Source: Patescibacteria group bacterium
GTDB lineage: Bacteria; Patescibacteriota; WWE3; UBA101185; 2-01-FULL-41-18
Length of the DNA: 64,000 nucleotides
Reading direction: 5' to 3'
Assembly: GCA_038064575.1 (NCBI GenBank)
Contig: JBBTST010000008.1
Location: forward strand, 2,458-66,457
The notes under the pieces are model-generated. The model had not been told where the DNA came from and searched no databases. It was given only the letters and a program-made list of their open reading frames with translations. Position 1 is the stretch's first letter; each line of letters opens with the position of its first letter. The translations under genes were made by a program, and so were the position numbers. This document shows positions 14,597 through 48,591 of this stretch, one piece after another.

Positions 14597-14761
14597 GTGT
14601 TAATAATTCACCTCCTTTGACAATTCCCCGCTCTTCCTTAAAAAACCGCCGGGAAATGCCAAAGGCAAATCTAAGGGTTAAGAATATCCGGGTAAATATA
14701 CTGCGTGGAGTATAACACAAAACTAGCCGGGCAGACAAAACCCACTTCAAACAGTAAAGAT

Positions 14762-14816
14762 TTATGAATGAGTTTTTAGAATCCACGCCTTCTCAAAAGT
14801 GAATTCCAAAAATCCC
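14762..14816. repeat. Copy 1 of a ~55-nt intergenic repeat family (TTATGAATG.GTTTTTAGAATCCAC...GTGAATTCCAAAAATCCC)
   Basis: Aligned by eye with copies at 16187, 20619 and 25365. Confidence 0.6.
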
Positions 14817-15133
14817 GCTACTAAACCTCAAACAAAGTTTAGTAGCCGCTAAGACCAAAAGGTCTTGCAGGTTTCCTGTCCTCAAATAACTTGAGTCATC
14901 TCCTTTGCGCCGCGGAGAAAGATTCGTTGTCTTGTCATCAAACTTACATTTCACAATTAAGTTTGATCCAGCGGTGGTCCTGAGCCCATTTTGTCTCAAG
15001 TTTGTACCTTGCCGCGCTTCAGCATGACCTTCCTCAAGGTCAAACTACAACCTGCCTAACTCTGAGGTTTTACCGGTACTAATTGGGCGAGTTAGATTCC
15101 CAATGTTTCCTGCCTGGCATCCAGGGCTTTTTA

Positions 15134-15394
15134 CTACCTTAACCCAAGCCTCTCTAGGTATCTCATCCCTTCGAGATCATAGTTTTCACAAGCTTGGTTT
15201 GCACAACAGCTTGTAAAAAACCTCCCATCCAAGTAAACCTTCATCCACGCCTTACCGCAGATAAGGCAGGACAGTTCTACCGGGTGGGTTACCAAGACAC
15301 CCTTAACATCACTGTTAGGGCACCCAGGGATTGAGCATCTGGCACCGTCATAGCCCAAACTGCCACCACAACCCAAACAAAAATAGTCTGCCAT
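15134..15394 (-). CDS. Small Cys-rich (putative metal-binding) protein
   Basis: 86 aa with CxxC pairs (CLGCGG, CSIPGCPN, CLICG, CCANQAC). GC-rich codon usage. Confidence 0.35.
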   Translation of the reverse strand: MADYFCLGCGGSLGYDGARCSIPGCPNSDVKGVLVTHPVELSCLICGKAWMKVYLDGRFFTSCCANQACENYDLEGMRYLERLGLR

Positions 15395-15544
15395 TTTAGT
15401 CTCCTTTCTTTTGAGAACCGGGCAATGGCTTAGCCCGCCTCAAAAGTACCCTATCGCTCTAACGTAGCGGCCTTTTACACAAACGTTAGAAATTCCCCAT
15501 CAATGCTTATAAGCCTTCTGATGGGTAGATAGGTATGTTGACTC

Positions 15545-16132
15545 TCAAAGGTATATAATTTTAGGGCGAATAAACCTTGAAATTTCCGCACCAAGGTCAA
15601 GCAGAGTGTGTAAAATCATGGCGTTGATCAAGCCATAATTTAAGACCACCACCCAGCATAAAGCCCCAATGAAGAAGGCATTAGCAACTCTCACAAAACC
15701 TCCATGCCCATAGCGATGGCCCATGGCAAAGTACACAAGGGCAATGAGAACTGCAACCCAAAAGCTTTTCACCCCAACCAACTGCAATAGGGAGAAAAAA
15801 GCCAATGGAGTTAGCCATCTGTCCGCAACCTCTTCCAAAACTCCGTGCATTACTGCCCGGGTGAAGAGTGCGAACGCCACAAAACCGATTCCCCTACCCT
15901 TAGGAACTCGGATCTCTTTTCGCGTTTTGATGGGATAATTGGTAGCCACCCCATACAAAAGCACAAAAAGAAACGTGGCAATGAGTGGAAGATCAACCCC
16001 TGTCCACATAGGGATTTCCACTTTCTGACCCCCAAATAGCGCAAGGATCAGAATCGCCGCGGGAATCTCCAGAAAAGCCAATGGCATTTCCGAAAGACAT
16101 CCCCTCAAGAGATGTTTCATTCTTTCCTCCAA
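15545..16132 (-). CDS. CPBP-family (CAAX/Abi-like) intramembrane metalloprotease
   Basis: Motifs occur in order: EExxxR 'LEEVADRW', FxxxH 'FAMGH', HxxxD 'HTLLD'. About 5 TM helices. Confidence 0.6.
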   Translation of the reverse strand: MEERMKHLLRGCLSEMPLAFLEIPAAILILALFGGQKVEIPMWTGVDLPLIATFLFVLLYGVATNYPIKTRKEIRVPKGRGIGFVAFALFTRAVMHGVLEEVADRWLTPLAFFSLLQLVGVKSFWVAVLIALVYFAMGHRYGHGGFVRVANAFFIGALCWVVVLNYGLINAMILHTLLDLGAEISRFIRPKIIYL

Positions 16133-16186
16133 GATTCGCCTGCCTTTTAAGGTTCAGGAGTTACGATCTTCATTCACAAACTCTTG

Positions 16187-16239
16187 CTTGTGAACGGGTT
16201 TTTGGAACCCACCTCCTATCTAGGTGAGCCCCAAAAACC
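16187..16239. repeat. Copy 2 of the ~55-nt intergenic repeat family (immediately upstream of the CPBP gene)
   Basis: CTTGTGAACGGGTTTTTGGAACCCACC...GGTGAGCCCCAAAAACC. Confidence 0.55.
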
Positions 16240-16274
16240 TTGTCATACATCCAAATTTGTGTTAGGTTTTACCC

Positions 16275-16481
16275 ATGATCTCAAGCAAAGTAAAGTTAAC
16301 TAAAATCGAGCAGGAACTCATTCTCCTCAAATCTTTCATAATTGGCTTAGCCGGAAAAGATAATGAAGGCGCTTACCGTCAAGAATTTGTCAAAAAAACT
16401 CTTGAGAGTCTTTCTGAAACACCCAAACGCGAATTTTCCGATTCCAAGTCATTCCTCCGACAAATCTCTGAATCAAAATGA
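16275..16481 (+). CDS. Putative antitoxin partner of a degraded RelE module
   Basis: 68-aa ORF whose stop overlaps the toxin ATG (ATGA at 16478-16481). Confidence 0.4.
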   Translation: MISSKVKLTKIEQELILLKSFIIGLAGKDNEGAYRQEFVKKTLESLSETPKREFSDSKSFLRQISESK

Positions 16482-16744
16482 TTAAAGTTGTTTATTCCGA
16501 CTCATTTGTCAATTCCGCAAAAAAGCTCCCCAAACAACAAAAAGAAAAACTTTCAAAACTCCTTGTGCTTCTTACAGAAAACCCTTTCCATCCTCTACTC
16601 CACTCTAAACCCCTAGTTGGACAATTAGCGGGCCTATATTCATTTAGGATAACCTGAGAGTACAGGGTTATTTTTAGCTTCAATAATCCTCACAAAATTA
16701 AGCTCGTTAGCCTTGGTCATAGGAAGGAAATTTATAAACACTAA
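16478..16744 (+). pseudogene. RelE/ParE-family toxin interrupted by an in-frame TGA (codon 60, 16655-16657)
   Basis: Translation MIKVVYSDSFVNSAKKLPKQQKEKLSKLLVLLTENPFHPLLHSKPLVGQLAGLYSFRIT*EYRVIFSFNNPHKIKLVSLGHRKEIYKH*. The RelE signature 'YSFRI..YRVIF...I.L..GHRKEIY' is split by the stop. A CGA->TGA change is the most plausible cause. Confidence 0.6.
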
Positions 16745-17873
16745 CGCGTTTCGCTCTTTTGCGATTTGCTTAAATTTTGCAAGCAAACCGAGCTCATCAG
16801 ACTTGGCACACACCAAGTTACGCGTGACCTAGGTTGAGCATTAGCAAAAAGCTACCTCTCAACCCAAGCCGCAAATGTTTTTTTATTATTCCCTGTCATG
16901 GCGGAAAAGGAGTTTTCTCTCCAAAACTAGCTTCAGTAGACCGCTCGCACTAAAAAGCACACAGCATCTGAAACCTTTCTCCAAACTTTTTATAGAGTTT
17001 ATCCCTCTAACCACGGAAAATATTCGCCTTTCGCGGTTACCTTCACATCACGCGCTACTGACACGACTTCAAGAAGGGTTTTGCGCGAGAAATATTCTTT
17101 ATCCCATGAGCCCTTAACCTCCCACTGATCGTAGGGGTTGACCCAAAGATAAAGAGTTTTCTCTTCCCCGACTCTTGTTATTACAAAAGCCTGGGTTTCG
17201 AACATGCACCCTGTCCTCAACGCCGTGAAGAGGCTAAGGTACGTGTTCTGGCTGTCCAACCACAAATCCAGGGACAGACTGGAGCAGTCGAGTTTGGTAA
17301 GCATGGTTTTTTAAACCTCCTGCTTAACCCTTGTTCTACCACCTCTCAAATCCTAGTATGGGAACTTTGCTTCTGATCCACACTAAAGCACTCGTGTGTG
17401 GCCCAGTTATAGATCCGTCCGTTCGGACAATCCAGAACTCATCCGCCTCAAACAGCCACTGCATTAGAGATTCTGGGAAAATGTCCGTATGAATTTCGTC
17501 ATATATCCCACCGTTCCGAAGGACAGCCTGTGGGCTTCCTTTGGAGGCGTACTCTCTCGCTTTCGCAAAAGCAGCCTCCCTAGTTAGAATATAACTTGCC
17601 ATCTTAATATCCTCCTTTTGAGGACTATTCTCCCAGATCAGTAACAGCCCTTAAGCGTTTACCAACTCAGGATTTTTGCTACGCAGCTTGAGCGATGATT
17701 TCAAGTTGCGGGGCCCGACCTTTGCCGTTTAACTTCAAGCCTCTTTGAGACAACCCATTATTTCACTTTAGTCCTACAAAAATCATCGTAGGCCTTAAAC
17801 ATAAATGAAAACTAGCGTTATCCCAAAATATTTGAAAGTAGCAACCCAAATCCAAAACAGCAGAAATGTTAAA

Positions 17874-18311
17874 TTAGACCAGATCAGAAAGCAGCACTAC
17901 ACCTTGAGTTTTAAAATGTCTGTCAAAGGTAAAAACACAATCAATCCCAAACCTCTTCTCTCTAGCAATAACAAAACTCACACAATCAACAAAAGATACA
18001 TTCTTAGACTTAATCCTCTTAAAAACCTCTATCGCCTTGTAAAAGATAATTTCTTCTACAAACAAAAGTTCTATATTCACAATTTCAGAAATAAGTCTGA
18101 GGGCAAAGTCCTTACCCACCTTCATAGCTATCACAGTTATACTTTCGCCAACAATCTCGGATGTAGTCACAAGCCTTGCATCAGATGGAAGACTGGCAAA
18201 CATGTTGGCAGCTTGCTTATGGGTTGGGTCATTCTTGTCGTAAAGAGCCACAAAAATATTCGTATCTATTAATACTGTGAGCTTAGCTCTCCTTTTTGCT
18301 GAAATCGCCAT
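17874..18311 (-). CDS. PIN-domain toxin (VapC-like)
   Basis: 'LTVLIDTNIFVAL', '...SFVDCVSFVIAREKRFGIDCVFTFDRHF': PIN acidic residues in order. The ORF is extended upstream; the likely start is at Met22. Confidence 0.7.
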   Translation of the reverse strand: MAISAKRRAKLTVLIDTNIFVALYDKNDPTHKQAANMFASLPSDARLVTTSEIVGESITVIAMKVGKDFALRLISEIVNIELLFVEEIIFYKAIEVFKRIKSKNVSFVDCVSFVIAREKRFGIDCVFTFDRHFKTQGVVLLSDLV

Positions 18312-18546
18312 ACGCATATCTGTCATATTCGCTGTTCCCGGGCCCATATCCTGCATTTTTAACCATCCGCTCAACTATTTCCTTGGGGGTTAGCATCTTT
18401 TTAGCCTCTTTAGCTTGAACATCTTCAAGTTTTTCTGCTAATAACACCCGCACAAGCTCGGACATAGAGGTATTTCTTTTGCGAGAAAGCGTGTATAAAG
18501 CGCTTTTTAATTGCTTATCCAGCATTATCTGAGATCTCTGTAACAT
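18283..18546 (-). CDS. Ribbon-helix-helix antitoxin (VapB-like)
   Basis: 'IMLDKQLKSALYTLSRKRNTSMSELVRVLLAEKLE' is an RHH fold signature. It lies upstream of and overlaps the PIN gene. Confidence 0.5.
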   Translation of the reverse strand: MLQRSQIMLDKQLKSALYTLSRKRNTSMSELVRVLLAEKLEDVQAKEAKKMLTPKEIVERMVKNAGYGPGNSEYDRYAYGDFSKKES

Positions 18547-18762
18547 ATACACAACTTTATTACACAACAGCCTATACGTCAAGACTAAACTATCACAAAC
18601 CTCTTTGAGGCAACCCAGTATTCTCACTTATATTTAGGCTAACAAGTTCTATTTATTGGCTTAGCACTCAAAATGAAAACTAGCGTTGTCACAAACTAAT
18701 ATATTAAAAACAGACGGTGGTGTTAGCTTGTACTAAAAACTTACTAGCACCACCGTTTAAAC

Positions 18763-19662
18763 TTATTCTAAGGATGGTAAATTCCCAAGGTGATACACCG
18801 ACCAATTGGTCAATGTCACCTCGAAGCCATCCCTCTCCCCACTATCGCGAAGGGCTTGAAGAACCTGCCCTGCTGCGACCGTGGAACCCCCGGGAAACTC
18901 GATACGTACTTCCCTCAGGAGGTATAGGAAATGCTCGAGGGTCAGGTCTCCTGGAGCAGAATACCATCCGAGGTGTATTCTCCGACCTGAGCTCTCAGTT
19001 ACGATGAGAGTCGGCCATCCAGCGGCATTAAAATAAACGCTCGGGCCTGAGAATGGGCCTGCAATGAACTCCCCTTCACCCCACTTAGAGAAGAACTCCA
19101 CCAGTTTCTCCCGGTCCCAAAGTGCTTCCAGGGTCGGGATATCGAAGACCTTCCGCAGGGCCTCATACAAAGCCGCGCGGTCGCCTCCATGGTAAGGAGC
19201 GTTCCCTTGCCGAGCAATGATACTCAACACTTTGGTCTGAGGCCAAAGATCGGCCATGCACCCCACCGCCTCGTCTGCCTGAATCGCTCCTGACCCAACT
19301 TTCACACAGGTCAGGAAAAAATCCCGCACCAACTCGGCCTCTTTCTGATACCCTAAACCCGGTTGATTAAACTTCCGAGCCAGGAGACCAAAAGTAATGC
19401 CGGCGTCTTCAAGAGCTTTAGCTCCATTCGCAGCGGTTTTGACCAAATCCTTGATAACATTGAGTGGTGAGCACTCGAGCCACACAACTTGCGGAAAACC
19501 AAACACCTGCGGCTGCATATTAAAGGCTGCCAAGGCATAGGTTACCCCACGGTCGAGCACTTTCACCTCGGCCAGGGGACCCATGGAACTCCCAAGGAAC
19601 GCATTAAACTTCCGGAGAAAGGAGGGCTCAAACGCCCTGATTGGAATCATCTTTACCTCCAT
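18763..19662 (-). CDS. Hypothetical protein (GC-rich island)
   Basis: 299-aa ORF with GC-rich codon usage and no motif I recognise. Confidence 0.4.
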   Translation of the reverse strand: MEVKMIPIRAFEPSFLRKFNAFLGSSMGPLAEVKVLDRGVTYALAAFNMQPQVFGFPQVVWLECSPLNVIKDLVKTAANGAKALEDAGITFGLLARKFNQPGLGYQKEAELVRDFFLTCVKVGSGAIQADEAVGCMADLWPQTKVLSIIARQGNAPYHGGDRAALYEALRKVFDIPTLEALWDREKLVEFFSKWGEGEFIAGPFSGPSVYFNAAGWPTLIVTESSGRRIHLGWYSAPGDLTLEHFLYLLREVRIEFPGGSTVAAGQVLQALRDSGERDGFEVTLTNWSVYHLGNLPSLE

Positions 19663-20211
19663 TTTTGGTTACAACCTATCCAAAAGATGAGAATGGATAA
19701 GAGGTTTCTTGCCTTGTTTGTTTCCTGCCTTACGGTCAGGTGTCTAAGACAAAACAAAGATTTGGCTTTGCACCTAGTTCTTTGGGTCTCCCCGCTTCAG
19801 AACAAGCCTCTTTTTTCGTAAGATATACGCTCCAAAATTCAGGAGCATCTGAGCTCAATATTTCAAAAAACACTAAATGTTGAATCCAAATGTTCCCGCC
19901 TAACCTTGATATTGAAAAATAAACTTCACATTCTTCAAAGTTAGGCTTCAGTAATTTTGCAATAAGTATGCAAAGATTTCTGAAAATACTACTCTGAGAC
20001 CCTTAGATCTTTTATCACGACGGAAGAAGATCTAGCCTCGCATTGGTTACCCAACACACAATCCAAACAGGCGTAGTTCACCTGACGTCTTTTGAACGCT
20101 GGACTATGCGGAAACCCAGGTTTTTTTACCAGCCGTTAGCCGGTTCGCATCCTGCTCTGCGAATTAAACCTAAACTCTAAGCCTTTACGGTTCATAAAAG
20201 CTTGGCCCTAA

Positions 20212-20565
20212 TTAGCTAAAACCACGACCCTTTCTGATCGCCTCGCCTTTTCCCCAAGGTGATTTATCATCTCCCATATCTACAGGAGATACCGACGCTA
20301 GCCCTACAACAAGCGGCGGTCTGTCTGAGGGCTTTTCAGGTTCAAAGACAACCTCTGCTATCCAGTAACCGGCAACCGGATAGGCATATCTATTGAGAGT
20401 ATCTTTCCCCTCTACAAACCTGACCTGCCTGAATTCATCATAAGAGGCAAGTACGCCCTCGCCATATTCACTGGCAAACCATGTCGGCCTGATTCGATTA
20501 TCTGGCACACCATAGCTGCCAGTAGTAGTGCTGACTACTATTATGTCTCCAACAGCCATCTTCAA
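20212..20565 (-). CDS. Hypothetical protein
   Basis: 117-aa ORF preceded by AAGGAG-like SD and repeat copy 3. Confidence 0.4.
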   Translation of the reverse strand: MKMAVGDIIVVSTTTGSYGVPDNRIRPTWFASEYGEGVLASYDEFRQVRFVEGKDTLNRYAYPVAGYWIAEVVFEPEKPSDRPPLVVGLASVSPVDMGDDKSPWGKGEAIRKGRGFS

Positions 20566-20618
20566 TCTCCTTTCTGGTTAATCAACCAGACCATCAATCT
20601 CACCCACAAGCTCCTTAG

Positions 20619-20685
20619 CTTGTGAACGGATTTCTGGAATCCACCAAGCGCTAACCTTCCAATAACAAGTGAATCCCAAAAATCC
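20619..20685. repeat. Copy 3 of the ~55-nt intergenic repeat family (with a 12-nt insertion)
   Basis: CTTGTGAACGGATTTCTGGAATCCACC...GTGAATCCCAAAAATCC, preceded by hairpin CACAAGCT-CCTT-AGCTTGTG. Confidence 0.6.
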
Positions 20686-20996
20686 TGGCGCATGAACGAT
20701 GTTTTACACATTCATTTCATGGCCGCCTCAAGTTTTCAAAAGAAAAATTGAGGGAGGATTTTAGTTAGTCTCGCCTAGTGTTTCTCTATCCTCTTACGAG
20801 TGTCACTAGACGCTGTTGGCTATCTCAAAGGTTTCTATTAAAGACCCCAATGAGTTTTCGAATCCAACAGTTTGCCGCATGCGGTATTTCGAAAGACCGC
20901 GGGTGGTTTGGTTTTAACCTTTCCTGGATCGATCCACCATTTCCAGAACCAAAACTTATCGCCTCCTTGTTAAGGGTCGGGCGCCTTGGCCGGGTA

Positions 20997-21545
20997 TTAG
21001 TGAGGCCAGCAGGGGCTGTGCTGGGATTCAGACCAATCGTCCCCATAACGAACCCAGTATGGGTCCAAGCAAGAACTTCCCTGCCTCACAACTGCGGGGT
21101 GTGCGAGTGCCCACATCCCTGTGCAGAACTGCTCAGCTGCAGCTTTGGCTCCCTCAAGTGTGAGGAAGCCTAGAACTTCTGGCTCGTAATTTCTTACCAG
21201 AAAACCCCCTCCCCCACAGATAAAACCGGGGAGGAATTGCGGGCCTTTGAGAACTAAATCGAGGGTTTTCATAACTGCTCCCGGAACAAAGTCCTCTTCA
21301 AGCCAGAGAAGTTTACAAGTACCATAACGATGACTCTCAGTCACCTCAACAATGGCAACAGGAACTCCACTCTGGAGGAGCACATAGTACTCCCAATTAT
21401 ATGGTGCTGTGCAATTAGTCCACACAAACACCAATTCCCCCTCTTTCGGAACGAGTGAGGAAGGGAGATAATGGGCGTTCCCCTCTTCTACCTCCAAGCC
21501 AAATAGTTCTTGGCTTGGGTTGTTAAGCCCCAAAAACTTTCTCAT
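20997..21545 (-). CDS. Hypothetical protein
   Basis: 182-aa ORF with no recognisable motif. Confidence 0.35.
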   Translation of the reverse strand: MRKFLGLNNPSQELFGLEVEEGNAHYLPSSLVPKEGELVFVWTNCTAPYNWEYYVLLQSGVPVAIVEVTESHRYGTCKLLWLEEDFVPGAVMKTLDLVLKGPQFLPGFICGGGGFLVRNYEPEVLGFLTLEGAKAAAEQFCTGMWALAHPAVVRQGSSCLDPYWVRYGDDWSESQHSPCWPH

Positions 21546-22198
21546 TTTCCTTTATCCTTTTTTTGCCCTCCGGCTCATGACTTAAATTTCTAAGCCAAGT
21601 CCTTAATGGGCGGGTTAGTTGAAAATGAATTTTTAAAATCCACATTTTTACAATTGTTCCACAGTCACAATTGTGTAAATTATAAAAACCCATGCCCAAT
21701 CAAAAGCGTAAGAATACATGACAAGATTTCTAAGCTCAAAGCAAAGAAAAACAAGTCAGGATTACACCTTCTTCCAATTGGGCCGCGTCTTATCTTAAAT
21801 TCTCTACACCGGACAAAAGAAAATAAGATAAGAAAAGTTGATAGCCTTAGCAGACGAGCTATCTTGGGGATTCCGCTTACTTGGGGTTCACCGTGTTTTT
21901 GGTCTATCTCAAGGATAGCTCCACATCACGTTTCTAGTCCCTTTCTCTCGGATTACACCACGTCCTCCTTTAAGCAAGGTCAGAGGAGCACACTGGTTTT
22001 CAGCTCTCAGACAACCGCAAGCTCAAATTTCAAAACTGTAGTCGCCTTTGATCCTACTTCCAGATCACCCAACCGTTATCCGTTGGGGTTTGCCAAGTCT
22101 TTTTCTTAACTTCCTTTCAATCGGCTTTGGACTTTGCATTTAAGCAAAACCCTGGCCAACTAGGAAGAAGTGCTTGGAGTACTTTTTTGCGGATTGAG

Positions 22199-22864
22199 CT
22201 ATAAACCCTCTACGATCTGTTTAGGGTCGTAAGGATAATCCCCAACCCAGCTACGAGGAATTTTATAGTAGCCATAGTGCTCTCCTCTTGCCGAAAGCAG
22301 AGAACTCATTTCCTTAGCTAATTCCTCATTTCGGAATTTCTCCATCAAGCTAACACAGAATTTCTTGATGGCTTCCACGGACAGGCCGGCTGTCAAACCG
22401 CTTACTATAGCGGTTGTGACCGGGTATTCGGACTGATACCACATAGTCCCATAAATACCCCCGCAGTTTGCCTTGAGCCCATTAGAGTCATGAGCCCATT
22501 CATTTAAGGCTCTGACCTTATCCACACACTGTTTTGCCTCAGCGTATGGGATCTTTGTCCATATGGCAGTGTAATATGCACTGCCACCGGAGAAACCGGA
22601 CTGAAATTCAATGTCCGGCTTTCCTAGTGCCCCTGTACTGTACCAACCATACTGCCGTTGGGCACCTTCAACAGCATAGTATGGACCGGTAACCTTGCGC
22701 AAAAACTGCGCTTTGCCGGATTTAGATTGACCTACGATTTTTACTTGGTAGGTCTCCCCAACTTTTGGCGCCCATCCCCTTTCAGGAAAGGACACCTTTC
22801 CCTCAATTCGGGCAATGACTCCGTCATGGCCCTTAAAGAAGGTGGCAAAGATCATTTCTGCCAT
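22199..22864 (-). CDS. Hypothetical protein
   Basis: ORF 22199..22921. The probable start is Met20 (MAEMIFATFF). No recognisable motif. Confidence 0.4.
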   Translation of the reverse strand: MAEMIFATFFKGHDGVIARIEGKVSFPERGWAPKVGETYQVKIVGQSKSGKAQFLRKVTGPYYAVEGAQRQYGWYSTGALGKPDIEFQSGFSGGSAYYTAIWTKIPYAEAKQCVDKVRALNEWAHDSNGLKANCGGIYGTMWYQSEYPVTTAIVSGLTAGLSVEAIKKFCVSLMEKFRNEELAKEMSSLLSARGEHYGYYKIPRSWVGDYPYDPKQIVEGL

Positions 22865-23905
22865 TTTCCTTTTCTCCTTTTCTTTTTTTGAATAATTCTC
22901 AAACCTCAAGTTCAAAACCACTCTTGAAGTCTGGGAATCAGAGTCGAAAATACAACAGTGTGCACTTTCGACTCTTTAACGAACGCAATTCAGTTATGTG
23001 AGGAGGACATAACCAAAGGAGCGCTCGGAACTTTTTGAAACTTCAGGTAAGCTTGCCACCACGGCCCTGCAGCAGCGCTTCTTAGGGCTTCTTGTTAATT
23101 TTTTCGTTTCATCCGGGCGATTGATGTTACATATGGCTTTACCCCCGGAGCTTACGCTTTGCACACCTGAAGTTCTAGTTTAGATAAAGGGTATCCTTGA
23201 ATCCCCTAGAGTTTCCTTACAGCCGTGTACTCGAACTCGAATGTACAGGGCTGCAAGCCTCCCGATTCATCAAGACAGGGAGAGTTGGGACACAGCAGTT
23301 TTTTGGGCAATCTTTGCAGGGATTACTTAAACTCCGCTGTGCGGACTCATGATTTCCCGTTTGGCCCCGTGCTTCTTCTTTATCCCAAATACACCGGTCA
23401 CCCGAACGTAGCAGAATAAAGATGCATCACACAGGACGGGAAATCTGCCATTTCTGCCTCTCCTTTTCCCCTTTACCTTTGATTACCTCTACCAACGACT
23501 TGTGAGCAGTAAAGACAATTAAAGATAAAGGGGAACATTTTTTGCGTTTTCGTAAAATTCTAAAATCTAACAGCAAATCTGTTGAATTCCAGAATTTTAC
23601 CTCCTAGCATCACATATAGTGAAAGTAAGAAATTTTCACGACTTCTGAAAATCTCCCACTGCTAAGAGGCGACATATAGCCCAATAAAACATCCGATGGT
23701 CCCTTCCCTTCTCTCTCCACTTAAGGCTGCACGCTTCCTTCTCCAATCTCATGATTAGGAGCTAGTACGCTATGGCAATAAGTTTCATTGAAAGAGGGTA
23801 CTATACCATCATTTTTTTCAGTCTTATTTTGCTATAACCCCTTCAGCAACTCGCTGATTATGTTGACAGGCTGAGGATACAGCCCCGAGTCTTAGTCAGT
23901 GTCGG

Positions 23906-24250
23906 CTAGGCCTCGACCTCCCACAACCCAAAGGCAAAGGTCGCCTTTGAGATCTCTTCGTCCGTAAATTCGCGAGTCTCCCGAGGGAGTCCGCGGACGG
24001 ACATAACGATGACCTTGTCCTCTACCCCTAAGGAAACCTTGGGGGCAACTTCGGGAACGGACACCTCAATCCCATGCTTCACCCTCAACGCAGCCAACGT
24101 ATTGGCATGCGATGGGTTGCAGCACGAAACGGCCGTGGGGGCCATGGATTTAACTTCCTCCACCGTCAACTGGCGGCGGGAGAAGCTACCAGACTGCGGA
24201 AACATTGAGTCCGCAATCGCCAAACCAATGTAAATCATTTCTTCCTCCAC
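23906..24250 (-). CDS. Hypothetical small alpha/beta protein
   Basis: 114-aa ORF with no motif I recognise. Confidence 0.3.
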   Translation of the reverse strand: MEEEMIYIGLAIADSMFPQSGSFSRRQLTVEEVKSMAPTAVSCCNPSHANTLAALRVKHGIEVSVPEVAPKVSLGVEDKVIVMSVRGLPRETREFTDEEISKATFAFGLWEVEA

Positions 24251-24488
24251 CCAGGTTAGGTTTTAGGCTTGAGAGCCAGAACCTGGGCAATGCCCTTACG
24301 AGCTTTGCAGAGGACTTCGATTTCGGTGAAGACCGCCTCATTTGAGGAATCAATCGGCAAACATATTCCCGACTCATTTCTCAAATAGGCATCTTCCTCA
24401 CTTCAATTAACACGGTTTATCCAAACTCACTTAAATGAACTTAGATAAACCGTTTGCCTTCAAGATTTCTCTCAGGCAAGCGGTCCCT

Positions 24489-24827
24489 TTACTTTTTCTT
24501 CCTCCTATAGTATCCACCCAGCTTACTCCTCAAGAAGTTTTTCTCTCCATCGGAGGCTCTCGGGTAGAAAAATCTGCCAATCCACCATCCGGCACAAAAT
24601 GCAACTAATAAGTGCCAGTGGCTCCAGCTTACAAAAAAAAGCCAGGCGGACAGACCTGTCGTGGTAACACCAAACAAATCCGACATCAAAAACCGGAACA
24701 GATGCCGGAAAAACAACCGATCGTGCCACGACTCCCAAAATCGGTTGCTATACCTCACCTGGATCCACCCAGAATTCAGAGCGTATCCAAAGAGGACGAA
24801 AACGCCGATGGAAATCAACGTTTCCAT
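24489..24827 (-). CDS. Hypothetical small membrane protein
   Basis: 112 aa with 3 hydrophobic helices. Confidence 0.3.
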   Translation of the reverse strand: METLISIGVFVLFGYALNSGWIQVRYSNRFWESWHDRLFFRHLFRFLMSDLFGVTTTGLSAWLFFVSWSHWHLLVAFCAGWWIGRFFYPRASDGEKNFLRSKLGGYYRRKKK

Positions 24828-25364
24828 TCTTCCTCCGCCCGGATCTTAATTTTTGGCTCAAAAGCCAGAACCCGAGAGTACCCTTACGAGCCTTAAGCGG
24901 AGAAAACAATCTGCAACAAAACCACCTTGCAAACTGGTTTCCAAGCTTACACCAGAATCAAAAATAACCTGGCCTTTATAACCCCAGAAGTCCTATCTTA
25001 CTTCTAGGGCTATAAAGACCGCCTAACGCAAACTGCCCGCTCACTGATACAGTCAAGGGAGCGTCCACATGAAAACAAATATTGCTCATCTCCGTTAGGC
25101 TTTTGCTAAATCGCACACAAACTGTACTTAGACAGTGATGGATCCAGCAAAGAAAGCAAAATCATATTTTCAACAGCCCTGGTTATTGGAATGGCAGATA
25201 CGAAACTCTCGATGCTTTGTCGAGTTAGCCTGATTTGTTGAAACAAAGTGGTAGTGTCGAACGGTAGTTAGCCGCGCGATTTTCCCTTTTGCCCCAAATC
25301 GTATCTTTTCTTACTTTTTCAGTTTTAATGAACGAAACCCAAAATCTCACCCATAAACCCGTGT

Positions 25365-25417
25365 TTATGAATGTATTTCTGAAATCCACCCTATCCAAAA
25401 GGTGAATCCCAAAAATC
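25365..25417. repeat. Copy 4 of the ~55-nt intergenic repeat family
   Basis: TTATGAATGTATTTCTGAAATCCACC...GGTGAATCCCAAAAATC, preceded by hairpin CATAAAC-CCGT-GTTTATG. Confidence 0.6.
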
Positions 25418-25763
25418 AGCCTCCGAACAAAGCGTTATACTTAGTGTTCAGAGCCAAAGAGAGGGAAAAGTGCATGTTTCAACTTCGCCCACTCCAGCAA
25501 AAAAGGTTTCATTATCCTCAAGCATGCGCTTGATATCGGACCACAATCTCAAAACCTCCTCCCAAAATAGCAAGCTCATGTTGCTTAGTTTGGGATTGAA
25601 AATCAGTCCGTCGCCGATTCGGTTTGTCACCCACTAATTCCTACCCAAGCAGAAAAGCGGATCAAAGGCCTCAACGAAGCTTTTTAGCGTCTGGCCAACC
25701 TGAGACAGTCTTAAACAAAATTCCATCTGTAGAATTCTGCGGTCAACTGACAACCACTAAAAC

Positions 25764-26228
25764 TTAAGCGTCCCGCCCGTCAGGATATTTTTTGCAGACG
25801 GTGCACCAACCTCCTCTCTGAACTTCTCTTACAGAGGAGTGCTTATCGTCCAGTCCGTCATACCAAGTGTCAACTTCAGTGCGGACACGACGAACTTGTA
25901 TGTGAGTCGTCATCGCCAAGCAGTTCTTGCAGAAGAACTCCTCGGTGTTATTGCCCCACATACCTTTTGACTTGGGAAACGAAGCTTCAACGATTTCGTC
26001 TCCGGAGTCATTTAGGTAGACGATAATCGTATCGCCTTCCCTTGGGTTCCTCTTGCCAGCTGTTCTCCAGTCAAACGACTGGGGATGTAGCGGGAGGCTC
26101 AGAGGTCCCTCTTCAATCCGTACCAGCCAACCTTCCAAGTCGGCCCCGTCAGGGTCTGGTAAAACCAGGCCCCAGGTTTTTTTAGCCATTTTTTTCTCCT
26201 TTCTTTGAAGGTTTCGCCTATGAACCAA
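25764..26228 (-). CDS. Hypothetical protein with C-terminal CxxC...CxxC
   Basis: 154-aa ORF (start may be Met14). 'CKNC...CTVCK' is a putative zinc ribbon. Confidence 0.35.
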   Translation of the reverse strand: MVHRRNLQRKEKKMAKKTWGLVLPDPDGADLEGWLVRIEEGPLSLPLHPQSFDWRTAGKRNPREGDTIIVYLNDSGDEIVEASFPKSKGMWGNNTEEFFCKNCLAMTTHIQVRRVRTEVDTWYDGLDDKHSSVREVQRGGWCTVCKKYPDGRDA

Positions 26229-26494
26229 ATGGTAAGTTCACAAGCTAGGGTTGGCAAAAGCCTTTATATCCCGACTTTGCGAGAAACCCTTCCTGTTGGA
26301 AATTGCGGCATTTGGTAAAACTTAGCCAAAACAAATCTCCTTCGGGCACGACCAGACTCAAATCTCCTACGCTGAAAGCGCGGAAAATTAAATCCAAACG
26401 TGTCCGTCTAACACCCTAAAGTATACCGATGTTAGAGTGATCTCACTTTTCACCATAGTTGACAAACATTGCCAAAGTTTGTTAAGATCCCGTC

Positions 26495-26788
26495 ATGATG
26501 CAAACAGTAAACATTTCCCTAACTGAAGAGCAAACAAAGCTCGTTGACGAGATGTCGTCAAAACACGGCTTTGCTAATCGAAGCGAGTTTTTCCGAACCC
26601 TTCTGAGGATCCTCCTTTACAAACCAGAAATCATAAAGGAATCCGATCTTTTGCCTTTTGAATCCCCTGCCGTTAAGAGCTCGGACGCAATCTTAAAAAG
26701 CTTTAAAGATAGCAAAAAATACTCTAAAGGTTTCTTAAAAGACCTTGAAAGAGGGCTTAAAGAAAGCAGCTATTTTGACAAGAAATGA
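26495..26788 (+). CDS. Ribbon-helix-helix antitoxin (ParD/CopG-like)
   Basis: 'ISLTEEQTKLVDEMSSKHGFANRSEFFRTLLR'. Its stop overlaps the next ATG (ATGA). Confidence 0.6.
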   Translation: MMQTVNISLTEEQTKLVDEMSSKHGFANRSEFFRTLLRILLYKPEIIKESDLLPFESPAVKSSDAILKSFKDSKKYSKGFLKDLERGLKESSYFDKK

Positions 26789-27036
26789 AAATTCTTCCAC
26801 TTTCTCCTACCGTCTCAAAATATCTTCAGAGTCATAACTTAATCAAAAAATACAAAAAACAAGTAAAACTTTTAGAAGAAGATATGCACTATCCAAGTCT
26901 AAACGTGGAATTGTTAGAACCTAAAGTGAATAGAATTTATAGCTTTAGACTAGATATTAAGTATAGAACCCTGTTCATTTTCCGAGACGACTTAAACGCG
27001 ATAGAAATCCTGTCAATAACAAAGCATTATCAGTAA
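26785..27036 (+). CDS. RelE/ParE-family toxin
   Basis: 'NRIYSFRLDIKYRTLFIFRDDLNAIEILSITKHY' is the RelE core. Its arrangement is coupled to the upstream antitoxin. Confidence 0.6.
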   Translation: MKILPLSPTVSKYLQSHNLIKKYKKQVKLLEEDMHYPSLNVELLEPKVNRIYSFRLDIKYRTLFIFRDDLNAIEILSITKHYQ

Positions 27037-27825
27037 ATACCCCGGCTTCCTTCGGGTACGGCCGGTTTCAATCTCCACCGGTAGCCAACAACCATTAGCA
27101 TCCCCGCTATAAAGAAGCTGGCCGTGAAATAAGCTGTTTTTAGCACGGCGGGCCTCCTTTCTGTCTAACCAAGTTTGGTTTTCCTCATTTGAGGAACCTG
27201 GAAAGACTTTATCAAAACCTAATACTCCTTTGCGGTAGCAGGCTTGGATAAAGTGGAAATTAAGAACTGCTTTTATTTCCACAGTGGCCACTTTGTGCAC
27301 TTTAAGTTGTGCAAGGATACCAAGCCTTTTATATTTTCGGGGTAATGATTGGCTCATCGGCGCGTCACCGTATCTCTCTTCTCAAGCATCGCACGCTTAA
27401 GAAAGGAACGGGTCTGGCGAACGACTCCCCTCAACCCCTAATCAATGCCTTTCATAAGGCACTGGTCCCGAGCGATACCCTGTGGATCATCGCGTAACTC
27501 ATCAGCTAGTTGCTGACGGCGCTCCCCAGGAAGGGCTTCTCGGCGGATTTCGGCGCGGTAAAAACTAAATCCGTTTCTTCATCCGTCTAAACTCTTTAAG
27601 TTACTAAAGAGCTTAAGACCGATAAAAAAAGGCATTTCTAAGATCACAAATTCTTATGAGCTTAGAAATGGGGGGATATCAGGTTTATGACCTAGTACAT
27701 CCCCCAGTAATAGCAGATTTAATTTCCACCTAAGTTGTTTACGGAGTAATTGTGGAAACACTCCGAGCACATAGAAATTAAGCCCTGCTTAATTCCAGAT
27801 TTTACAGCGCTATTTTTAGAAGGGT

Positions 27826-28617
27826 CTAAGCGTGTTGCTTACTTTGACCCTTCCCCCTCTTAGCTTTCTTACCCGTGGCCTTTTTCTTCTTCCCCATGCC
27901 CTCAATTTTGATGATGGAGAAGGTCGGATCCACCCAGGCGTCACCAGCGGCGGCTCTCGAGGTCAAAGCGGTAGCCCTGGCCAATTCAACGGCCGCGGCA
28001 TTCTCAGCCTTGGCATTGAGAGAGGCTTCGGAAACTTCGGGCTCGTACTTTTCGTGCCCATTACCTTTAACCTCCAACCTCTGACCGCTGCTAAACCGAC
28101 GATCTGATTTCAATACCAGACCAACTACCGCAGCCAGACTTGTCTCGTCCCTATCCGCTTCGATCTTGCGACGGATCGATTGGCGGAGATTGACAACCGC
28201 TTTCTTAGCCTGTCGAGCCAAGGCGATTTTTGCCTTCAAAGACTTCTCACCTTTGGCTTCGACCAGCAGACGCTGGGCGAAGGAGAAGTCCAGGTGCCAA
28301 CCATTGAATTCGACCATGGACTCTTCCATCTCAACCGCGATCTCCGCGATCAAGACGGGGAGTTCTACGCGGTTGGCCAGTTCAACGGCCTCCCACGCAA
28401 GCTTGGTGGCGTGGCCAGTGTTTTGGGCGAGGACGGCTTCGTCAAACTTAATCCCTGCCTCGCCAAGGGCGAAAGCCACATCGGCGTCCAACCTCGCAAC
28501 CGGAGTACAATGTTGAACAATTGATTGGAAAATCCTCCTAGGCAACTCAAAGCCCGCGGGGTCAACCTTACCATTGGAATTATTGTTCGCGTTCATGGTA
28601 TCCTCCTTAGGGTCCAA
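27826..28617 (-). CDS. Hypothetical protein with Lys-rich C-terminal tail
   Basis: 263-aa ORF. The C-terminus 'GMGKKKKATGKKAKRGKGQSKQHA' suggests nucleic-acid binding (inference). Confidence 0.35.
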   Translation of the reverse strand: MDPKEDTMNANNNSNGKVDPAGFELPRRIFQSIVQHCTPVARLDADVAFALGEAGIKFDEAVLAQNTGHATKLAWEAVELANRVELPVLIAEIAVEMEESMVEFNGWHLDFSFAQRLLVEAKGEKSLKAKIALARQAKKAVVNLRQSIRRKIEADRDETSLAAVVGLVLKSDRRFSSGQRLEVKGNGHEKYEPEVSEASLNAKAENAAAVELARATALTSRAAAGDAWVDPTFSIIKIEGMGKKKKATGKKAKRGKGQSKQHA

Positions 28618-30012
28618 CCCTAAGTACTAAAAACATCTTGGCCCTAACATCTCGGCCAAGTTAAAAAGTTCGATTCCATTCTCCTTAAATCTCAGACCGC
28701 TAAGTCCAATCTTTAAGTTTTTCCTCAGCCGTTACCAGCTTTGGAACACACCGACGATGGATCGCCGGGGGCACTCGCCTCTCACCTTCGCCTCCGCGAC
28801 AGCAAAAAAACGCGCTGATCACGAACAAGACAAAAGTGTAAATAAAAGCGATTAAAACTTGGGTCTATGCCTATCTACGGCCTTCACCCAAGAGCCATTT
28901 TGCAAGCAAATCTCCGCGTCGGTCCAAGGTGCAAATCCCCGGATGACGACTTTGCGCTAGTCCTTATCCTCCCGTCTCTATCAGACCTTCAGGGAGTGCT
29001 CAACCACAGGACTAGATCAGAAGTTCATTTTTTGCGCTGGTCGTGGCTTCCCTAAAGGAAGCTCGCAAAAAACTTCTCCCTCAGGGAGCCTAACTTTCCG
29101 CCTATTACAAAACAAAAGCAGAAAGAAAGACCTTCTCCAAATTTCTTTGGAATCGCGGGTTTGTGGTTAACCCAACTTGATTTGATCGCCGGTTCAAGTC
29201 AGACCGTTATAACTTCATCCGTTTAAACTAAGCCTCAATCTTAAGCTCCAACCGATGGACTTATATAATACAGCTTTGAGGAAAGGATCAGCCTTGATAC
29301 TTAATAACAATCAGGAAAGCCTTTCGGCCGTCTGATAATAATCAGCATACAAAACCGCCCTTCCCTCTGGCTGTATAAAATCAAATTTCAATATATAGTC
29401 ATATTTAATTGTCAAAGTTCTTTTTGAGCTTTTTGGCAAAATCAAAAAAAGAAACCGCCAAGGCCCAAAACAAATCTCTTCCAATCCTCTGGTTTAAATT
29501 CACAAACTGGCATCTTAGCAAAAATACGCAATTGAATGCGCTGTGTAATAGTGTTTGTAAACTTAAATAAGGGGAATAGAAAAGTCGCAGCGGGTTTGCC
29601 TTTGCGATCATCTCTCCTCCTCTTTTGTTGGGGCAACTCTGCCCCACTCCGGGTAACAAAAAAGCCAGGATCTAATGAGATTCCCTAAACTTAACCGCCG
29701 ACCAAAAGCTCGATTTATAAAAAGCTTGAGAGCTTTGTGCGAAAGTAAAGAAATTTCGTTAGATCCTGGCCTTCTTAGAACTTCTATGAATTTCAGGTTT
29801 ACTAAAGACGCTGATTTGACAATCTTTAGATAGGCTCAAGATCATCTGCGTGAACAAAAGTATAGTACTATAGGATTGAACTCTTGTCAAGGGTTGCAGC
29901 GTAAAGATAGGTTCCAAAGTAATCTGCCACCAAGTCAGCACAAGCACAGCCTATCACATATTCTACATATATACTAAATATCTTTACTTAACTACATAAA
30001 TATGATATAAAT

Positions 30013-31146
30013 TTGTATATGATCGAGAGGTTATTACTCAATTTAATACTCAAAGAACAAAAAGAAGGGTTTATCACCCTCATTCACGGCTCCCGCCGGG
30101 TTGGAAAGACCGTCTTACTAAGCCGTATTCTTGACCGCTTTCCTCAGGCAGAAAAGCTTGTTCTAAACGGCGATACCGATGAAGCAAGAACTCTTCTTGG
30201 CACAACCTCTGAAGTGAGTCTTACAGGACTTGTTGCAAACTACCCTATCATTGCAATAGACGAAGCGCAAAGAATCCCAAATATCGGACTTTCTTTAAAG
30301 ATAATTATAGACAAGTTCCCAACAAAGAAGATTTTTGTGACGGGTTCATCCTCTTTATACTTAGCCAAGGGTCTTCACGAAACTCTTACCGGCCGAACGC
30401 TGAAATACAAACTCTTCCCTCTTTCCACAAAAGAATTAGCTCAAAGCCTTAAACCGCACGAAATTCCCTTTCTGCTTGAAAATGAACTCATTTACGGCGG
30501 TTACCCTTACATACAAAACCTCGCTACTCCGACCGAAAAGCAGGCATACCTCCAATCGATTACACAAGATTATTTGTTTAAAGACCTCTTAGAACTTGAA
30601 CGGCTGGAAAACCCCGACTCGCTCAAAAAACTTGCGAGTTTGCTAGCTTTTCAGATTGGCAGTGAGGTTTCGCTCAATGAGCTTGCAACAAAGCTCTCGA
30701 TAAATGTTAAAACGGTGGCGAGGTACTTAAACCTTCTTAAGGAAAGCTTTGTAATCTTTGAGCTTGGTGCGTTCTCGTCTAACTTAAGGGATGAGGTAAC
30801 AACCGGCAAAAAATACTATTTCTACGATTTAGGAATAAGAAACGCGTTGATTTTACAATTTCATTCACTTGATGTAAGAACTGACATTGGCAATCTATGG
30901 GAGAATTTTTTGGCCGTCGAAAGATTAAAAAAGCATGAATATGAGCGAAATCTTACACCCCACTACTTCTGGAGAGATTACGCTAAAGCGGAAATTGACT
31001 GGATCGAAGGTGCATCAGGAAGCTTAAGTGCGTTCGAGTTCAAGTGGAAAAACCGCGCTTTTAAGACCCCAAAGAAATTTAAAGATAAATATGGGCTAAC
31101 TGCTTCTGTTGTGAACAAAGAGAATTATCTGGGTTTTATTATGTAA
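30013..31146 (+). CDS. AAA+ ATPase (AAA_14 + DUF4143 family)
   Basis: Walker A 'GSRRVGKTVLL', Walker B 'IIAIDEAQRI', and a C-terminal DUF4143-like region. Confidence 0.75.
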   Translation: MYMIERLLLNLILKEQKEGFITLIHGSRRVGKTVLLSRILDRFPQAEKLVLNGDTDEARTLLGTTSEVSLTGLVANYPIIAIDEAQRIPNIGLSLKIIIDKFPTKKIFVTGSSSLYLAKGLHETLTGRTLKYKLFPLSTKELAQSLKPHEIPFLLENELIYGGYPYIQNLATPTEKQAYLQSITQDYLFKDLLELERLENPDSLKKLASLLAFQIGSEVSLNELATKLSINVKTVARYLNLLKESFVIFELGAFSSNLRDEVTTGKKYYFYDLGIRNALILQFHSLDVRTDIGNLWENFLAVERLKKHEYERNLTPHYFWRDYAKAEIDWIEGASGSLSAFEFKWKNRAFKTPKKFKDKYGLTASVVNKENYLGFIM

Positions 31147-31621
31147 ATTTCATCCCGACCCATAAAACACCTTTTCATCTTTTGTGCCATTTCCATGCTC
31201 AAATACCCTTGTTCCTGCCCAATTTAAGCCCAAAAACAGCAGGGTATTTAAAGGTCTCTTGGCTCCTTCCAATACCCATCCTGAACTTCACGGGCCGCAA
31301 CGCCTGCAAAGCCATCTTCCTATTCTCCCTTGCTCTGCCCTGGTCTTTTGGAAGATGTTACGGTCAGGTTCCGAAGGATCTAATCTCACCACTTGCCGAG
31401 GGTGGCTGATCCTTTTGAGTTGGCGCGCTTTTAAGCCTCTGTTTTGAAGCTATAACCTCCCACCGGTTTTTTTCCCGGCTCTAGGGCAATCTTTGCATGC
31501 GCCGCGGGGAGGAATTTAAGAAATTATTTAGTCATCGTAAGTAATCCTTTCTTTCGGTGACTGTTGTGGCCGACTAGCCAACCAATTTCGGGCAGCTGCC
31601 GGTCCACGGGGTACCAAAAAA

Positions 31622-31630
31622 GGGGGGGGG
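31622..31630. repeat. G9 homopolymer tract flanked by GGTACC and GTCGAC
   Basis: Seen directly: GGGGTACCAAAAAAGGGGGGGGGTCGAC. Confidence 0.5.
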
Positions 31631-31764
31631 TCGACAAGAGGGCTTTGTTACTGGAACATAGCTCTCACATCCTTTTTATTTTTTGTGATTCTAACAGAAT
31701 AGAAGAAGAAAATCAATAACTATAGGTTCTTGTCTTTTAAAGAGTTGCCATATATAATGCACGC

Positions 31765-32016
31765 ATGACAAATGAAACTGTTATCAAAGCTCAAATTTAT
31801 CTTCCTAAAGCCATCTATGAACTACTTAAAGAGCGTTCAAAAGCCACAGGGAGTTCCATTGCCCTTCAGATCAGACAGGCTTTGGCGGAATCAATCAAAG
31901 AAGAAACAGCCTCCAACCCTTTGCTCAAATTCTCTCGAAAATTTGCCAAAAAAAGATCCAAAAGCTTTAGAAAAAATATAGACGAAGTAGTCTATAACGA
32001 CACTTATGTCCCCTAA
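31765..32016 (+). CDS. Putative antitoxin (RHH/VapB-like)
   Basis: 'IYLPKAIYELLKERSKATGSSIALQIRQAL'. It overlaps the downstream PIN gene by 11 nt. Confidence 0.5.
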   Translation: MTNETVIKAQIYLPKAIYELLKERSKATGSSIALQIRQALAESIKEETASNPLLKFSRKFAKKRSKSFRKNIDEVVYNDTYVP

Positions 32017-32467: not shown

Positions 32468-32562
32468 AACCTGTCTATCTACAAAAAGAGGGCGTCCCTG
32501 AAGATTAAAAACCTTCAAAAGAGCCCTCTTTGAAAACGCCGGATGTAATCGCTTTGATTTTG

Positions 32563-33114: not shown

Positions 33115-33418
33115 TTTTCTCTCCGTTCAAAGATTTGGATTTGGGGAGAATTATACTATAAGTGGCCATGTTTAGCTTTCAGACTTAAAGCCTGAGGGTG
33201 GGTACCTCCGAAGTTGCTTTGAGTTTTAACTTCCATACCAAACATCTGTCTCTCCAAGAAGATCTTCATCCTCACCTACTTTTTCATTTGAGGTGGTCTT
33301 TCCCCTTTGCCTAACCTAGTGCTTCTTTTTCTTCATTGTTTTGAGGCTCTTCTAGAAAAGTATCCGACATCGGCTCTGTTTTTTCAACTAGAAATAGCGT
33401 GTGGCAAAATGCTAAACA

Positions 33419-48565: not shown

Positions 48566-48591
48566 CTACAAAGTTTTTGCGCGGGCGAGGA

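Follow-up and report, generated by a model that had tools for sequence, protein, structure and literature searches.

The stretch of DNA analysed here (the window) is 64 kb long and belongs to a Patescibacteria (candidate phyla radiation, CPR) genome assembly from Hainich groundwater. Between 14.6 and 29.4 kb it contains a GC-rich, gene-poor block, whose open reading frames (ORFs), toxin-antitoxin (TA) modules and hairpins are the subject of this report. The flanks encode LeuRS, Obg, Rho, a sortase together with an LPXTG protein, and a 23S rRNA split by a LAGLIDADG gene. Two of the block's proteins are entered at NCBI as hypothetical proteins of a Patescibacteria group bacterium, and AAB443_02675 and AAB443_02700 are among the NCBI locus tags of this genome. 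The remaining sequence of the window served as the host reference for composition, and folding was scanned on both strands in sliding 120-nt windows compared with dinucleotide shuffles (folding z). The features of the block are listed below in coordinates of the window, with GC3 for the GC content of third codon positions and MFE for minimum free energy (kcal/mol).

14762-14816, minus strand: copy 1 of a five-copy hairpin motif, at the left block edge, 173 nt before a host-like zinc-ribbon gene; MFE -16.2 (minus), -7.1 (plus)
15134-15394, minus strand: cysteine-rich ORF of 86 aa, belonging to no known family; GC3 0.52
15545-16132, minus strand: Rce1-like (CPBP) membrane protease (Pfam PF02517, E 4.7e-5); GC3 0.49
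16188-16242, minus strand: motif copy 2, with the protease start codon 61 nt downstream; MFE -27.8 (minus), -19.2 (plus)
16275-16744, plus strand: TA module 1, a 68-aa antitoxin-like ORF followed by a TGA-interrupted RelE-like toxin; GC3 host-like, folding z about 0
16999-17602, minus strand: two orphan ORFs of 101 aa and 88 aa; mean z of the 101-aa ORF -3.2 (minus)
17874-18525, minus strand: TA module 2, intact VapB (RHH) and VapC (PIN) (Pfam PIN E 3.7e-10, RHH_1 E 4.6e-4); z about 0
18763-19650, minus strand: ORFan of 295 aa, matching only itself among 5.8e9 proteins and nothing in Pfam, PHROG or PADLOC
19651-20211, minus strand: hairpin-rich non-coding stretch; mean z -2.0, minimum -7.6
20212-20565, minus strand: orphan ORF of 117 aa, no Pfam or PHROG match
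20590-20687, minus strand: motif copy 3, accompanied by another small hairpin; the ORF start at 20565 lies 61 nt downstream
20997-21545, minus strand: orphan ORF of 182 aa, no Pfam or PHROG match
21619-21692, minus strand: motif copy 4, diverged (58 bits), 80 nt upstream of the ORF start at 21545
21838-22198, minus strand: candidate conserved structured RNA (trailer) of about 360 nt, directly downstream of the gene for a 221-aa protein
22199-22864, minus strand: protein of 221 aa whose N-terminal domain, about 55 aa long, is conserved; 18 relatives by HMMER
22865-23905, minus strand: non-coding, with long hairpins at 23466-23535, 23552-23600 and 23622-23662; mean z -2.2, minimum -9.2
23906-24827, minus strand: two orphan ORFs of 114 aa and 112 aa, the latter hydrophobic; no Pfam match
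24410-24455, minus strand: perfect 20-bp hairpin between these two ORFs
24828-25763, minus strand: non-coding, with hairpins at 24901-24942 and 24971-25020 and with motif copy 5
25365-25420, minus strand: motif copy 5, with no ORF behind it and a leader resembling that of copy 3
25764-26189, minus strand: orphan ORF of 141 aa with C-terminal CxxC pairs, no Pfam or PHROG match
26495-27036, plus strand: TA module 3, intact RHH antitoxin and HigB/RelE-like toxin (Pfam); host-like composition, z about 0
27037-27825, minus strand: non-coding, with three consecutive near-perfect hairpins at 27587-27700 (z -9.6); mean z -3.4
27826-28617, minus strand: ORFan of 263 aa (NCBI hypothetical protein AAB443_02700), matching only itself among 5.8 billion proteins
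28618-29400, minus strand: structured non-coding leader forming the right block edge, with a long imperfect hairpin at about 29275-29375; mean z -2.5

The composition of the block is foreign to its surroundings. GC content in 1-kb windows is 0.41-0.52, compared with 0.35-0.42 in most flanking windows; GC3, in which the contrast is clearest, is 0.54 in the non-TA genes of the block, 0.35 in host genes (n = 22) and 0.38 in the TA genes; codon frequencies correlate with those of the host at 0.60 for the non-TA block genes and at 0.82 for the TA genes; and tetranucleotide frequencies correlate with the host at 0.72-0.86 in the block, against 0.86-0.97 in most other parts of the window. The raised GC3 and the lowered correlations give the block the composition of a genomic island, and agree with an earlier note on this DNA in finding it non-uniform. 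That note had GC content jumping after the zinc-ribbon gene and dropping again near 29.4 kb; the higher GC content of the block is confirmed, but the rise is less abrupt than claimed, since at 300-nt resolution the climb on the left side is gradual and the 3' end of the TPR gene already stands at 0.45. At the same resolution, GC content falls to 0.32-0.41 at all three TA modules. The low coding density and all five ORF-free stretches that had been named are real: ORFs of at least 100 aa, counted from stop to stop, occupy 58% of the block as opposed to 93% and 81% of the flanks, and by the gene list used here approximately 8.0 of 15.4 kb is intergenic (about 52% non-coding). On the minus strand, 15 ORFs of at least 100 aa and seven of at least 150 aa are seen, against 3.1 +/- 1.7 and 0.2, respectively, in dinucleotide shuffles; because of this excess, and because block ORFs have the coding-like pattern of a higher GC content at first than at second codon positions, most of the orphan ORFs are real genes.

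Gene poverty would be only apparent if the assembly were chimeric or if the organism used another genetic code. Composition does change at both block edges, contigs of other assemblies stop at 14.10, 15.78 and 28.51 kb, and a single in-frame TGA is present; however, five assemblies made independently (ENA and Logan; two assemblers) agree at 99.99-100% identity over the block and its two junctions, a 38-kb Logan contig and ENA contigs cross these junctions with 100% identity, and in ENA the contigs of flank and block bear an equal coverage label (cov_6). Because the five assemblies agree across the junctions, the chimera that the earlier note had raised as a concern is excluded. Reading TGA, TAG or TAA as sense lifts ORF coverage no more than expected and brings no coherent gain in long ORFs, which leaves either form of artefact extremely improbable. 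All of the recovered copies of the block represent one clonal population, and no related genome turned up. Contig breaks in the assemblies of this population lie at 14098, 15772-15789 and 28513, two of them within block genes, and may reflect strain heterogeneity or low coverage (6x).

The block folds more strongly than the rest of the window. Its mean folding z is -1.69 on the minus strand and -1.25 on the plus strand, compared with about -0.3 elsewhere (Mann-Whitney p 5e-27 and 4e-21), and 28% (minus) and 18% (plus) of its windows have z below -2.5, compared with 6.5% and 4% elsewhere. The signal stems from runs of long near-perfect hairpins, which are not copies of each other; hairpins with 12 or more pairs number 2.8 per kb in the block and about 1.1 per kb elsewhere. 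In the five flagged ORF-free stretches, mean z on the minus strand is -1.8 to -3.4, against -0.57 in host intergenic DNA and -0.14 in the host overall, and intergenic GC content is 0.35-0.45 in the block versus 0.26-0.40 in the host. Non-coding windows of the block fold more strongly on the minus strand (mean z -2.28) than on the plus strand (-1.36), G-U pairs of the minus-strand folds turning into C-A mismatches on the opposite strand. The block's coding regions show no such asymmetry (-1.19 and -1.28 on the two strands); the orphan ORFs have mean z of -0.9 to -3.2 on the minus strand, and the three TA modules lie near 0, as do host genes. Intrinsic terminators were considered, but a T-run follows only a few of the long hairpins, which are therefore not simply terminators. 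The best sigma-70-like site on the minus strand (29890-29862) is just upstream of the leader at 28618-29400; between this promoter-like site and the block there is an AT-rich small ORF (29405-29611, minus strand; 68 aa from ATG) with a strong Shine-Dalgarno sequence.

One of the non-coding stretches, the trailer downstream of the gene for the 221-aa protein, is conserved on unrelated groundwater contigs. It is 76-95% identical in L057, a contig from Rifle groundwater, and in L060 and L061, from Logan runs, although the C-terminal halves of the adjoining proteins differ; a covariance model matches these three contigs at 165-176 bits. The consensus fold of the four sequences comprises 82 pairs, with 97% of cells paired. 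Thirteen pairs have changed on both sides, compared with 6.2 +/- 1.7 in column shuffles (none of 500 reaching 13) and with 0-3 double-sided changes in slid-partner controls, in a set of four sequences only, two of them close, and for a structure derived from the same alignment. In one helix, CCCCAA...UUGGGG is replaced by CUUUAG...CUAAAG; a conserved stem surrounds a terminal insertion whose length differs greatly from sequence to sequence, and there are also conserved single-stranded stretches. The trailer has no paralogue elsewhere in the 64-kb window. Rfam 15 contains no family that matches the trailer, or anything else in the block or its relatives, at gathering score or at E <= 1, so that the ORF-free stretches yielded no known RNA family. 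As far as a small sample can indicate, the pattern of change is typical of a functional RNA, for which the trailer is a candidate.

The adjoining 221-aa protein has one full-length relative (62% identity) and several that are about 70% identical across the first 120-130 residues but have unrelated C-termini. Its N-terminal domain (consensus GKVSFPERGW.PK.GE.WEVEI.GQN..GKV.FLR), which is shared with proteins P0003-P0023, is present as a single copy or as 2-4 in tandem, joined to a wide variety of unrelated C-terminal regions, and has no match in Pfam or the PDB, profile search included. Distant members are encoded in compact arrays of small ORFs on the same strand, together with a STIV_B116-like gene and HTH_3 regulators, in DNA with a GC content of 0.42-0.64; these arrays look like the early region of a phage or other mobile element. 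Among relatives, the N-terminal half, the C-terminal half and the trailer have been shuffled independently, and since the full-length orthologue on contig L056 is not accompanied by the trailer element, all three recombine as separate modules. Conserved hairpins are also found within the coding sequence of this family, at 22700-22790 (minus strand) of the window and in L056, L057, L060 and L061; they are built from complementary codons, e.g. ACCUACGA...UCGUAGGU encoding TYE...IVG, and the coding regions of the relatives have folding z of -2.4 to -3.6. Contigs L057, L058 and L059, assembled from related Rifle groundwater samples, share their starting base, which lies 35 nt ahead of the homologous ORF, as would be expected with repeated or variable sequence just upstream. 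AlphaFold2 models of the 221-aa and 295-aa proteins are too poor to use (predicted local distance difference test scores of 50 and 40, respectively).

Structure within coding sequence would be accounted for if the element had a single-stranded-DNA phase, rolling-circle or conjugative, whose hairpins were origins or template-switch products at the DNA level and not features of RNA. The strongly negative z of both strands of the block (-1.25, -1.69), the equal folding of the two strands in coding regions and the folding of homologues on other contigs throughout their coding sequence all agree with this. Yet Pfam and PHROG scans found no Rep/HUH, relaxase or other replication gene, and the non-coding fold is stronger on the coding strand through its G-U pairs, which fits RNA, or else one particular DNA strand. 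We consider a single-stranded-DNA phase distinctly unlikely.

The second structured element of the block is the hairpin motif, present in five copies compared with 0.01 expected by chance, all in one orientation and in the block only. Four copies of a repeat of about 55 nt had been reported previously; these four stand, and a fifth, diverged copy is found at 21619-21692. On the minus strand the motif reads GGAUUUUUGGGAUUCAC, a loop of 9-29 nt, and GUGGAUUCCAGAAAUCC, with arms of 17 nt; (G/A)UUCA(C/U)AA follows in four of the five copies, and a second small hairpin in three, that of copy 3 having two compensatory pairs with respect to copy 5. The stem has 18 pairs, with pairing in 93% of cells; one U-G pair never varies, and four pairs have changed on both sides (1 of 500 shuffles). 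MFE is -16 to -28 kcal/mol on the minus strand versus -5 to -19 kcal/mol on the plus strand. No further copy was found in the window or in the relatives' contigs. Reference genomes gave 47 single matches in unrelated taxa, about the number expected by chance; JGI metagenomes gave none to the strict pattern and one to a relaxed pattern, in eukaryote-like repeat DNA and judged a chance match; and IMG/VR gave none.

Such repeats might be attC-like sites that fold in single-stranded DNA and bound the cassettes of an integron-like array, i.e. a cluster of attC sites lacking integron-integrases (CALIN). The block resembles one in its same-strand ORFans interspersed with TA modules, of which two out of three face the other way, in its repeated imperfect hairpins with variable loops and one-strand folding, in the modular shuffling of the 221-aa gene family, and in that contigs of relatives begin 35-72 nt before an ORF in three assemblies. 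Nevertheless, the 64-kb window contains no tyrosine recombinase, and the motif has no complementary R''/R' core (RYYYAAC...GTTRRRY), a 3' GTT being present in two of five copies and its 5' partner in none. There are five copies for approximately 16 genes, at a spacing of 1.0-4.7 kb; the copies lie 309-756 nt past the preceding stop codon, yet 61-80 nt before three ORF starts; and the relatives' contigs have no copy of the motif. Because attC core sites and a recombinase are both missing, the block is not filed as an integron, a reading that is largely excluded and to which we attach very little probability.

Among the protein-coding genes, the CPBP protease, the VapBC pair and the RHH-RelE pair recognized in the earlier note are confirmed by Pfam. 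The other block ORFs match nothing in Pfam, PHROG or PADLOC, and the description of them as orphans holds except for the 221-aa protein, which has relatives. Across the window, a Pfam scan of ORFs of at least 110 aa and of smaller block ORFs revealed no integrase, transposase or phage structural gene, as the earlier note had stated for the block. Each of the three TA modules has the type II arrangement of a small antitoxin adjoining a toxin gene, one toxin being interrupted by TGA, and a promoter-like site (26459-26488) is located ahead of module 3. The RelE-like toxin of module 1 does carry the nonsense codon ascribed to it, an in-frame TGA at 16655-16657 after which RelE-like sequence resumes through 16744. 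Decoding of this TGA as Gly or Trp was considered and rejected: the intact paralogue has no conserved Gly or Trp at the corresponding position, and a nonsense mutation is therefore the simpler reading. Interleaved as they are in the block, the three modules of host-like composition probably stabilise the island.

The interrupted toxin is one of several signs that the block could be a decaying remnant, an old prophage or island in the process of losing its genes, with eroded pseudogenes for ORF-free stretches and hairpins that are incidental. Motif copy 5 is not followed by an ORF although its leader is similar to the leader of copy 3, non-coding DNA makes up 52% of the block when ORFs of at least 100 aa cover 81-93% of the flanks, and no mobility genes remain. 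However, the longest stop-to-stop fragments of the ORF-free stretches match neither Pfam nor the block's own proteins; tblastn of these proteins against the block recovers only the two RelE copies, so that no hidden pseudogene and no missed conserved protein came to light. Random erosion yields no strand-favouring excess of stable hairpins, and would not have kept the trailer at 76-95% identity with compensatory changes while the adjoining coding sequence was replaced. The other two TA modules and all of the large ORFs are intact, and minus-strand ORFs are in excess (15 versus 3.1). Of the two interpretations offered in the earlier note, decay thus accounts for a nonsense codon in one toxin and a motif copy lacking its ORF but is at odds with the ORF excess, the absence of Pfam fragments and the strong structure; the better fit is a region rich in non-coding RNA, one stretch being conserved with compensatory changes. 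Because the gene-poor half is packed with stable hairpins, including a conserved RNA and the five-copy motif, it is more than just decaying DNA. Compared with a structured island, set out below, pure decay explains the block less well, and we hold it to be unlikely.

Horizontal acquisition of the block, as proposed in the earlier note, is well supported because its composition and codon usage (GC3 included) are foreign, two of its large ORFs are free of homologues in 5.8 billion proteins, and the one family that could be traced, that of the 221-aa protein, is found in phage-like arrays. With slightly better than even confidence, we interpret the block as a CPR island derived from a mobile element, with TA modules interleaved, that yields heavily structured transcripts punctuated by hairpins at the RNA level. 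The island would have been acquired by the CPR chromosome most likely from a phage-like or plasmid-like element, bringing about 12 genes of foreign composition on the same strand, mostly ORFans, with three host-like type II TA modules between them. We infer that the non-coding half is co-transcribed with these genes into a heavily structured minus-strand RNA, the elements of which would be leaders and trailers with stable hairpins, at least one multi-stem RNA, conserved and about 360 nt long, and the five-copy hairpin. Situated 61-80 nt before three ORFs, this hairpin may serve as RNA punctuation, for example as a site of processing, stability or translation control to which a factor of the element binds.

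Several observations weigh against this interpretation. Integrase, transposase, Rep, capsid and terminase are all absent from Pfam and PHROG scans of the block; blastn and tblastn against 50,697 phage records (INPHARED), concatenated orphan proteins included, found no phage similarity, nor did IMG/VR; and the borders of the block show neither a flanking direct repeat of 12 nt or more nor a tRNA fragment, the nearest tRNA being 4.7 kb off. Comparative support extends to one non-coding stretch only, from four sequences with an alignment-derived structure. In sequence searches the hairpins other than the trailer have no relatives elsewhere, the five-copy motif included (reference genomes, JGI metagenomes, IMG/VR and the relatives' contigs). 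Furthermore, coding regions in the block and in several relatives are strongly folded, with z down to -3.6, which could reflect a mutational or single-stranded-DNA process and not selection on RNA, and which the punctuation idea leaves unexplained. A further possibility, which we regard as doubtful, is that the block and its relatives on groundwater contigs represent a kind of mobile or viral element of CPR or other subsurface bacteria that has so far gone unrecognised. Its genes would lie within pervasively folded nucleic acid, with new large RNAs, of which the trailer would be the first, and with hairpin punctuation comparable to a repeat of mycobacteriophages (the ESAS, below), and its function would depend on the structure of RNA or single-stranded DNA and not on a known mobility protein.

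The region to the right of the block (30013-34223) encodes an AAA_14/DUF4143 ATPase, two PIN-domain genes and unannotated ORFs at a host-like GC content, and ends at a tRNA-Ala gene (34148-34223); it looks accessory and may belong to a larger variable region. Elsewhere in the window, the 5S rRNA gene adjoins only the final 250 nt or so of the 23S rRNA gene (62546-63601, minus strand), and the ORF of the LAGLIDADG endonuclease (63128-63601) is directly upstream of this 23S fragment, so that an intron appears to split the 23S gene. Intron-interrupted 23S genes are common in CPR bacteria. There is also a second GC-rich block (48500-54500; GC 0.45-0.53) with a mean folding z of -1.34 on the minus strand. 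It contains five minus-strand ORFs (48592-52601) with no Pfam match, a GC3 of 0.56 and a codon usage that correlates at 0.75 with that of the orphan ORFs of the first block, and its ORF-poor part (52.6-54.5 kb) contains hairpins of 26 pairs (53045-53107) and 24 pairs (53722-53780). One of the five ORFs (51081-52601) encodes a 506-aa protein that has weak similarity to FtsZ near the GGTGG nucleotide-binding loop (best PDB E 6e-4) and may be a divergent tubulin/FtsZ-like protein. Tubulin/FtsZ-like proteins are used by plasmids and phages for partition. The claim that a block of this kind is unusual in a compact genome was overstated: in addition to the second, similar block, genomic islands are reported to be common in Patescibacteria, hundreds having been predicted in 125 aquifer genomes, where they account for up to 13% of genome length (PMC12455944).

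CPR islands are usually dismissed as collections of hypothetical genes, whereas the empty half of this island can hold organised and conserved nucleic-acid structure. The block yields a candidate structured RNA tied to an undescribed domain family, a hairpin on the coding strand that resembles a repeat of mycobacteriophages (discussed below), and an excess of folding that continues through coding sequence. If these structures are functional, they offer insight into how mobile elements that have no known mobility genes are regulated or moved in ultra-small bacteria; if they are not, the block is an ordinary island.

Comparison with known systems places the block near several of them. Cassettes of integrons are typically 0.5-1 kb long with one attC site after each ORF, and the integrase IntI is absent from CALINs by definition. 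The block shares with sedentary chromosomal integron arrays and CALINs its one-strand ORFans with TA modules, its one-strand imperfect hairpins with a variable terminal loop, and its shuffling; it differs in having no IntI and no R''/R', and in that its few irregular repeats are at the starts of ORFs, not after their stops. Some RNA viruses have genome-scale ordered RNA structure, which the extension of folding excess through coding sequence resembles, although the block is bacterial chromosomal DNA and not an RNA replicon. GOLLD and ROOL are large RNAs associated with prophages. The long, well-folding intergenic regions of the block, richer in GC than the host, and the conserved stems of the trailer resemble these RNAs and those found with DIMPL, an approach that seeks structured non-coding RNAs in long GC-rich intergenic regions of AT-rich bacteria (PMC8723152); unlike them, the trailer belongs to no Rfam family, is tied to one gene family and is represented by four sequences only. 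Cluster K mycobacteriophages have extended start-associated sequences (ESAS), imperfect inverted repeats of 17 bp around a variable spacer, which are of unknown function and lie upstream of a subset of genes in a single orientation (PMC3203893). This anatomy matches that of the five-copy motif, but there is no sequence similarity; an ESAS abuts a 13-bp start-codon motif, whereas the motif of the block is 61-80 nt upstream, followed in three copies by a second small hairpin, in an unrelated host phylum and in a block with no phage structural genes. With the genomic islands of CPR bacteria (PMC12455944) the block shares a deviant composition, a small groundwater CPR genome, and hypothetical genes together with genes of defence or TA type; about half of it is non-coding, it is exceptionally dense in hairpins and it has a hairpin motif of its own, features that were not found mentioned in the portion of that study used for this comparison. 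In kind the block is an ordinary genomic island; what is unusual is its non-coding architecture, which includes one or more candidate new structured RNAs and a new repeated hairpin.

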